From: a virus
Lineage: Duplodnaviria; Heunggongvirae; Uroviricota; Caudoviricetes
DNA length: 4,280 bases
Strand: one strand, 5' to 3'
IMG/VR virus record: IMGVR_UViG_2711768167_000005
Location: 1-4,280 of that record
Shown here: in pieces, positions 3,035 through 3,416 of the stretch
Numbering within the stretch: position 1 is the first letter of the stretch
How the letters are laid out: each line of letters begins with the position of its first letter
Program-made: the position numbers and the translations under genes
Notes under the pieces: model-generated
Told to the model about the DNA's origin: nothing
What the model saw: the letters and a program-made list of their open reading frames with translations, nothing else
Databases searched by the model: none

Positions 3035-3243
3035 TTTGTCGCTCCTTCAGCTTTCCCGAACAGTTGAGGGTGTGCTGTCTTCAGCTTCGCATTCTCAGTT
3101 GCCAGCGTCTCGCATTCATCCAGCAGAGCCAGCACAATCGATGGTTCTACCAGCTCATAGAAAAGGTCCGTGTCAAATCCCCAGTCGTCATGCATTGCCT
3201 TTTCTGCCGCCTCACGCAGCTCCTGATAGTCAATTTTGCTCAT
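3031..3243 (-). CDS. Ead/Ea22-like N-terminal module protein (70 aa, acidic)
   Basis: ATG at 3243..3241 in an ATGA overlap with the stop of the 58-aa ORF. The N-terminus MSKIDYQELREAAEKA resembles the N-terminal signature of Ead/Ea22-like prophage proteins as I recall it (unverified), and also the start of the 199-aa protein. Confidence 0.55.
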   Translation of the reverse strand: MSKIDYQELREAAEKAMHDDWGFDTDLFYELVEPSIVLALLDECETLATENAKLKTAHPQLFGKAEGATK

Positions 3244-3416
3244 TCATCACCCCACTCATCGCAATATGCTTCGACAGGCGTTTTTCCAGCTTCATAGTCA
3301 TCGCGCCATGCTTCGGCATCGGCGGCACTTCCACCACGTAACCCGGCATAGTCCATTAACACTTCATGCCATTCTTCAAAACTGGCGTTATATTTAGTTG
3401 AACCAAAATCAGTCAT
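3240..3416 (-). CDS. Small highly acidic protein (58 aa), not in the supplied ORF track
   Basis: Translated by hand: MTDFGSTKYNASFEEWHEVLMDYAGLRGGSAADAEAWRDDYEAGKTPVEAYCDEWGDE. ATG at 3416..3414 is preceded by GAGG, which overlaps the TAG stop of the 82-aa gene. TGA at 3242..3240 overlaps the next ATG. It has 15 Asp/Glu against 4 Lys/Arg. Confidence 0.5.
   Translation of the reverse strand: MTDFGSTKYNASFEEWHEVLMDYAGLRGGSAADAEAWRDDYEAGKTPVEAYCDEWGDE

Follow-up and report, generated by a model that had tools for sequence, protein, structure and literature searches.

A 58-codon gene of an Escherichia coli integrative conjugative element encodes a conserved acidic protein, a candidate inhibitor also carried by phages and plasmids

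Small acidic inhibitors encoded by mobile genetic elements are a known kind of protein, and the closest described systems are the DNA-mimic anti-restriction proteins of the Ocr and ArdA kind, which block type I restriction-modification enzymes, and two proteins of bacteriophage T7, the 52-aa acidic RecBCD inhibitor gp5.9 and the H-NS inhibitor gp5.5. Ocr and ArdA are strongly acidic and are borne by phages and conjugative elements; in T7, gp5.5 and gp5.9 are encoded in the slot between the DNA polymerase and exonuclease genes. Here we analyze a 58-codon gene on a stretch of 4,280 nucleotides (IMG/VR record IMGVR_UViG_2711768167_000005, positions 1 to 4,280; hereafter the window), which by its sequence and gene content is part of a SPI-7-type integrative conjugative element (ICE) of E. 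coli. The gene is genuine and under strong purifying selection, and its product is comparable to gp5.9 and gp5.5 in size and charge. We tentatively propose, at a probability of roughly 0.4, that this protein uses a conserved acidic surface to bind and inhibit a basic protein, probably one that binds nucleic acids, belonging to the host or a rival element.

The minus-strand frame runs intact from ATG (3416-3414) to TGA (3242-3240) and encodes the product MTDFGSTKYNASFEEWHEVLMDYAGLRGGSAADAEAWRDDYEAGKTPVEAYCDEWGDE. A first, sequence-only reading of the window had picked out this frame together with a GAGG ribosome-binding site and an ATGA overlap onto the next gene, and the frame and both signals are present as described:
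3240..3416, minus strand: 58-codon gene, member of family phrog_519 (open reading frame and translation, PGAP coding sequence WP_001696185.1, phrog_519 match)
3426..3429, minus strand: GAGG Shine-Dalgarno-like site, 9 nt before the ATG, within the last codons of a gene for a ParE-like protein
3240..3243, minus strand: ATGA stop/start overlap of the 58-codon gene with an Ead/Ea22-like gene (from the sequence)
The sequence preceding the frame reads ...CTGAGGTAGAGCAAA-ATG, and the TAG stop of the ParE-like gene (3425-3423) leaves a gap of 6 nt. The ATGA overlap implies a putative translational coupling of the 58-codon gene to the Ead/Ea22-like gene downstream. Since the minus strand near the 58-codon gene showed no sigma-70-like promoter or terminator, the gene is likely co-transcribed by read-through from the ICE backbone operon. 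A recount of the product confirmed its Trp/Tyr-rich composition and the 15 acidic (Asp/Glu) against 4 basic (Lys/Arg) residues, with 1 His, 3 Trp, 4 Tyr and 2 Phe, an isoelectric point of 4.06 and a net charge of -11.4, the highest acidity among the twelve co-oriented genes of the window. The gene had been described as unlisted, and it may be missing from the list of reading frames supplied with the window; however, it is identical to a gene that PGAP annotates at the same position, with the RefSeq entry WP_001696185.1 ('hypothetical protein').

A length of 58 codons is not in itself significant, since the window holds 49 open reading frames (ORFs) of at least 30 aa. The frame could thus be one of the chance ORFs that are frequent at such a length, or reflect a signal from the opposite strand, where ORFs 3027-3341 and 3236-3397 overlap it. 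Its conservation was assessed in 83 related loci, 80 from a scan of viral contigs and three from annotated records. The 58-codon frame is intact and free of frameshifts in all 83, which carry 24 nucleotide alleles. Alleles unlike that of the window differ from it by 9-14 synonymous and 3-7.5 non-synonymous differences each; the proportions of synonymous (pS) and non-synonymous (pN) differences are 0.27-0.42 and 0.02-0.05, with pN/pS 0.06-0.15, and the variable columns fall on codon positions 1, 2 and 3 in the numbers 8, 11 and 20. In addition, homologs at 30-60% identity occur in unrelated elements, and no Rfam family matched in the window. Frameshifts and a non-coding substitution pattern, named in the sequence-only reading as signs against the frame, were looked for and not found. 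The conserved frame and the low pN/pS identify the 58-codon frame as a real gene, and the probability that it arose by chance or mirrors the other strand is negligible.

The protein matches the phrog_519 hidden Markov model over its full length (residues 1-58, E = 4.3e-22, 80.1 bits). This is an uncharacterized family, whose RefSeq members WP_001696185.1 and WP_000753049.1 are both named 'hypothetical protein', and it has the same length, conserved core and acidic positions as the 58-aa protein, without differences. When 1.84 billion representative proteins were searched exhaustively with a profile, only 78 clusters (50% identity) were obtained at E <= 1e-3, and the members of these clusters are nearly all stand-alone proteins of 48-70 aa. 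Relatives are found in 2104 of 5426 complete E. coli genomes (about 39%), among which the ICE allele, at >= 99%, accounts for 30 records. They also occur in 198 phage records, temperate as well as strictly virulent, and on 554 plasmids, 516 of them conjugative and many of type IncI2. Phage examples include the ea region of a lambdoid Shiga toxin (Stx) phage (ArgO145), the nin region of a Rac-like element (Rac record), the virulent Ackermannviridae Det7, Ag3 and Klebsiella 0507-KN2-1, and phiKDA1 of the Autographiviridae. The gene contexts of two distant members (P0101 and P0098) were uninformative.

AlphaFold2 gave the same model from 13 close sequences (predicted local distance difference test, pLDDT, 79) and from 50 diverse family members (pLDDT 86, predicted template modeling score 0.68). 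Residues 1-12 are without regular secondary structure and are followed by helices at 13-27, 34-42 and 47-55, which are predicted to pack into a compact three-helix bundle. Over the 50 diverse members, for which the column statistics were computed, the invariant or near-invariant positions are F13, W16, L20, A24, W37, Y41, G44, P47, A50 and the aromatic residues at 51 and 55; a G44-x-T-P47 turn precedes helix 3. The conserved aromatic and aliphatic residues recur along the helices at core-type spacings, and in the model the conserved Trp, Tyr and Phe together with the aliphatic residues are the hydrophobic core. The richness in Trp and Tyr, which had been taken as a signature of mimics and inhibitors, is thereby accounted for differently, because a very small bundle needs an aromatic core. 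Three short helices with a conserved aromatic residue in each (W16, W37 and aromatic 55), the third preceded by a turn that contains Gly, are also reminiscent of Myb/SANT-like and other tri-helical proteins of the helix-turn-helix (HTH) type; this likeness was seen by eye, found no support in Pfam or fold searches, and was set aside.

The acidic residues, too, recur at particular columns. At columns 14, 15, 33, 35, 39, 40, 42, 49, 53, 54 and 57, Asp or Glu is found in 68-80% of members; in the predicted model these eleven columns are exposed, so that nearly every exposed helix position is a conserved Asp or Glu, in line with the suggestion of the sequence-only reading to examine the surface charge by structure prediction. 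The only conserved basic residue is R38, and the median net charge of the 50 diverse members is -10.4. The acidity is a selected surface property, family-wide and position-specific.

Comparison of the surrounding genes shows that the family moves on its own. In prophage-type loci the upstream gene is, in 77 of 83, one for an acidic 60-aa DUF7167 protein with an 8-nt overlap, whereas IncI2 plasmids have DUF1187 upstream, with the same 8-nt overlap, and a gene for an SPFH protein downstream. The DUF7167 protein of the prophages is itself very acidic (MRKFKIIIETGIAGGDFEDEFEVDDD...; L002 4826-5008). In DNA alignments the homology with prophages starts about 10 nt upstream of the ATG, and that with IncI2 plasmids extends exactly from ATG to stop. 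The unit of exchange, as judged from these alignments, is the single gene, a cassette swapped among prophages (in ea and nin regions), virulent phages, conjugative plasmids and the ICE. Exchange of the gene alone favors an autonomous function over a dedicated partnership with either neighbor.

The downstream side deserves separate consideration, since the protein could be an accessory subunit, chaperone or regulator of a protein of its own element, notably the coupled Ead/Ea22-like product. A downstream gene that begins MS(E/K/G)(I/V)(N/D)YQ and is joined by the ATGA overlap is kept in 80 of the 83 prophage-type loci as well as in the window, as would be expected of a functional pair. However, the bodies of these downstream genes are highly variable (36-270 aa, of unlike sequence), with the N-terminal module alone in common, and unrelated genes stand downstream of family members in IncI2 plasmids, Det7, phiKDA1 and the MOBH plasmid p12208-IMP. 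For these two reasons the linkage looks like a shared recombination junction rather than a functional pair. A pairing with the Ead/Ea22-like protein is unlikely, and so is an accessory role for the element's own proteins in general.

With respect to known inhibitors, the searches were negative throughout. The 58-aa protein matched no Pfam family at E <= 0.1, no NCBIfam family and nothing in PADLOC. In the PDB, a search with the single sequence returned nothing and one with the 50-sequence profile nothing meaningful (best E = 0.19); Foldseek comparison of the model with the PDB gave nothing at E <= 0.001, and the BFVD fold search recovered uncharacterized family members only. Based on these Pfam, NCBIfam, PDB sequence and fold searches, the protein is outside Ocr, ArdA, ArdB/KlcA, gp5.9, Gam and every solved anti-CRISPR family. 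The profile search proposed in the sequence-only reading thus led to a family, phrog_519, but not to a known mimic or anti-restriction family.

This bears directly on the possibility of a DNA-mimic anti-restriction protein that would act on type I restriction-modification enzymes as Ocr and ArdA do. The high and conserved negative surface charge of the DNA-mimic class is found here (-11.4 over 58 aa, with the family median and the eleven acidic columns given above), the conserved charge amounts to about -0.2 per residue, and the gene, like those of Ocr and ArdA, is borne by phages, ICEs and conjugative plasmids. Yet neither the Pfam nor the NCBIfam models place the protein in Ocr, ArdA or ArdB/KlcA, and it has no match to Ocr or ArdA in Pfam, PDB sequence or fold searches, nor a structural likeness to any solved mimic (Ocr, ArdA, gp5.9 or others). 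Ocr and ArdA are elongated dimers and two to three times larger than the 58-aa protein. As there is no positive evidence for mimicry or anti-restriction activity beyond charge and size, we consider this explanation quite improbable. Of the earlier suggestion of a DNA mimic or host-protein inhibitor, the second half is reasonable. The occurrence of the gene in the accessory regions of diverse mobile elements fits a host-directed factor.

The T7 proteins provide a further comparison. In phiKDA1, a KP34-like podophage, the homolog is flanked by the genes for DNA polymerase and 5'-3' exonuclease (L087 3516-3671). This position resembles the T7 slot of gp5.5 and gp5.9, an analogy that offers the proposed inhibitor role a positional lead only. 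In contrast to the likeness in size, charge and position, the family has no sequence similarity to any PDB chain and no fold match, and gp5.9 is reportedly a coiled-coil dimer, as opposed to the predicted globular three-helix bundle of the 58-aa protein.

An anti-CRISPR (Acr) function has been suggested indirectly, as phrog_519 members of Kuttervirus phages were flagged, as a prediction only, by the machine-learning predictors PaCRISPR/AcrHub (PMC9409062), and a small, acidic protein would suit such a function. This flag is a prediction from composition-type features, however; PDB sequence and fold searches showed no homology to known Acr structures, and Pfam no similarity. Moreover, the neighbors vary and include no conserved adjacent HTH gene of the aca type, making an anti-CRISPR role very improbable. 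The PaCRISPR/AcrHub flag was all that turned up in a search of literature and supplements with the sequence, the accessions, phrog_519, DUF1187 and DUF7167. The supplements of two phage accessory-gene screens do not contain the sequence, nor do those of a survey of plasmid leading regions (PMC11541004) contain the protein or its accessions.

Having weighed these alternatives, we return to the proposal of a small acidic inhibitor. In this model the 58-aa protein would be made early after entry or activation of the element in a cell and would act stoichiometrically through its conserved polyanionic surface, most probably as an electrostatic decoy or inhibitor. Candidate targets would be a restriction or other defense complex, RecBCD, or a nucleoid protein. 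The proposal is supported by the occurrence of a conserved, stand-alone polyanionic protein on many types of element that depend on becoming established in new cells. Several observations weigh against it. The literature search found no experiment on any family member, and Pfam, NCBIfam, PDB, Foldseek and BFVD revealed no sequence or structural similarity to a known inhibitor or DNA mimic. Phage accessory regions commonly encode small acidic proteins, and net charges of -4 to -11 are seen for several neighbors in the window, so that charge alone discriminates poorly. On IncI2 plasmids the gene is adjacent to repA and heads a string with a CaiF/GrlA-type regulator, DUF1187, SPFH/NfeD and type IV secretion system genes, where no leading region with ssb, psiB or ardA is recognizable. 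Finally, the Det7 homolog follows the major head gene, and early expression is thus not established everywhere. Overall, the earlier interpretation is partly supported, with the function inferred.

The sequence-only reading, which spoke of related prophages, implied a prophage setting, and this assignment did not hold. At 99.5% identity, the window matches a stretch of the chromosome of E. coli AR_0089 that lies inside a SPI-7-type ICE (the first 43 nt of the window do not align to AR_0089). Annotated genes around it include those for ParA, the SPI-7-type DnaB helicase (DnaB-PI), ParB, DUF2786, DUF2857 and the ParE-like protein, and further ICE genes encode STY4528-family and STY4534-family replication proteins, PFL_4669, topoisomerase III, ssb and PilL. 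The 58-codon gene belongs to a co-oriented string with topoisomerase III and ssb, about 6-10 kb from them. From the DUF2857 gene and this gene neighborhood the window is assigned to a SPI-7-type ICE, with phage-type genes inserted, rather than to a prophage:
3668..4246, minus strand: DUF2857 gene of the ICE backbone (Pfam PF11198, E = 5e-66)
3423..3671, minus strand: basic ParE-like protein of 82 aa, ICE backbone gene (Pfam PF24732, E = 1.6e-19; net charge +11.7)
3031..3243, minus strand: Ead/Ea22-like protein of 70 aa, N-terminal module only (Pfam PF13935, E = 4.6e-10; PGAP name)
205..3416 (L001 9406-12617), minus strand: array of about 11 small phage-type accessory genes (PHROG matches, backbone comparison)

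The array is an insertion of ~3.7 kb between the ParE-like and STY4528-family genes of the ICE backbone, and the 58-codon gene is its first gene. It consists of accessory genes of lambdoid-phage type, with Ead/Ea22-like modules and several PHROG families; 8 of the 9 array proteins scanned had a PHROG match at E <= 1e-10. In the ICEs of Brenneria, Serratia, Xenorhabdus, Erwinia and Morganella the backbone order is DUF2857, ParE-like, roughly 80-140 nt, and STY4528, without the array and without a small ORF between the ParE-like and STY4528 genes.

The backbone order is also informative on whether the 58-aa protein could be the antitoxin of the ParE-like protein, in a toxin-antitoxin pair of reversed gene order. 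The opposite charges of the two products (+11.7 and -11.4), the 6-nt spacing and the location of the ribosome-binding site inside the toxin gene would fit such a pair. Against this, no small acidic ORF follows the ParE-like gene in the five other SPI-7-type ICEs; DUF7167 or DUF1187 occupies the upstream position in 77 of 83 prophage loci and on the examined IncI2 plasmid; and homology with the prophages sets in just about 10 nt ahead of the ATG. A neighbor other than a ParE-like gene stands upstream in 81 of 83 loci and on the plasmids examined. Given the ICE backbone order and the variable upstream partners, a conserved linkage with the toxin gene is not found, and the antitoxin explanation was rejected as extremely improbable. 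The ParE-like gene itself overlaps the DUF2857 gene by 4 nt. As no obvious antitoxin gene flanks it on either side in the loci examined, its product may be an orphan or a non-toxic protein of the ParE fold.

Other features of the array concern its remaining genes. In the near-identical AR_0089, several array genes are marked by PGAP as partial or frameshifted. A direct repeat of 145 nt (93% identity; window 738-882 and 1569-1713) encodes the shared N-terminus M[TI]TITKERLLTI.QWRETYGPGSNVVLPAEEAEELARI of the otherwise unlike genes 469-882 and 1315-1713, and exemplifies module shuffling in the array. The basic 171-aa protein encoded at 1710-2225 has very strong matches to phrog_9263 and phrog_631 (uncharacterized) and none in Pfam; by eye, it shows a D...E-x-K arrangement (DAMGF...IEAKCSR) reminiscent of PD-(D/E)xK nucleases. 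An acidic 65-aa protein at 893-1090 has two CxxC pairs (CPKCG...CPEC) in a zinc-ribbon pattern and a weak, sub-threshold NCBIfam match to the YnfU-family zinc-binding proteins (E = 6e-4). Near the start of the window, a C11 homopolymer (61-71) and a C6 run (83-88) correspond to Gly runs on the minus strand within the PGAP coding sequence WP_001696194.1; this tract could be prone to slippage, or a hotspot of sequencing error.

The protein was already catalogued as a common hypothetical protein, and the firm gains of our analysis are that the gene is real, that it resides on an ICE rather than in a prophage, that the aromatic residues are explained by the predicted fold, and that the toxin-antitoxin explanation is excluded. 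If the inhibitory role holds, phrog_519 would add a family of new sequence and fold to the known small acidic inhibitors encoded by mobile elements. It is rather doubtful, but can be put forward, that phrog_519 founds a new family of broad-host mobile-element inhibitors, in which a polyanionic three-helix module of ~45 residues, carried as a single-gene cassette, would block a conserved enterobacterial defense or DNA-processing protein by a fold unlike that of known DNA mimics. Should the proposed mode of action be true, the protein would offer a compact tool for inhibiting its target, and this one protein, with its new minimal fold, would act as an establishment or counter-defense factor shared by phages, ICEs and conjugative plasmids.
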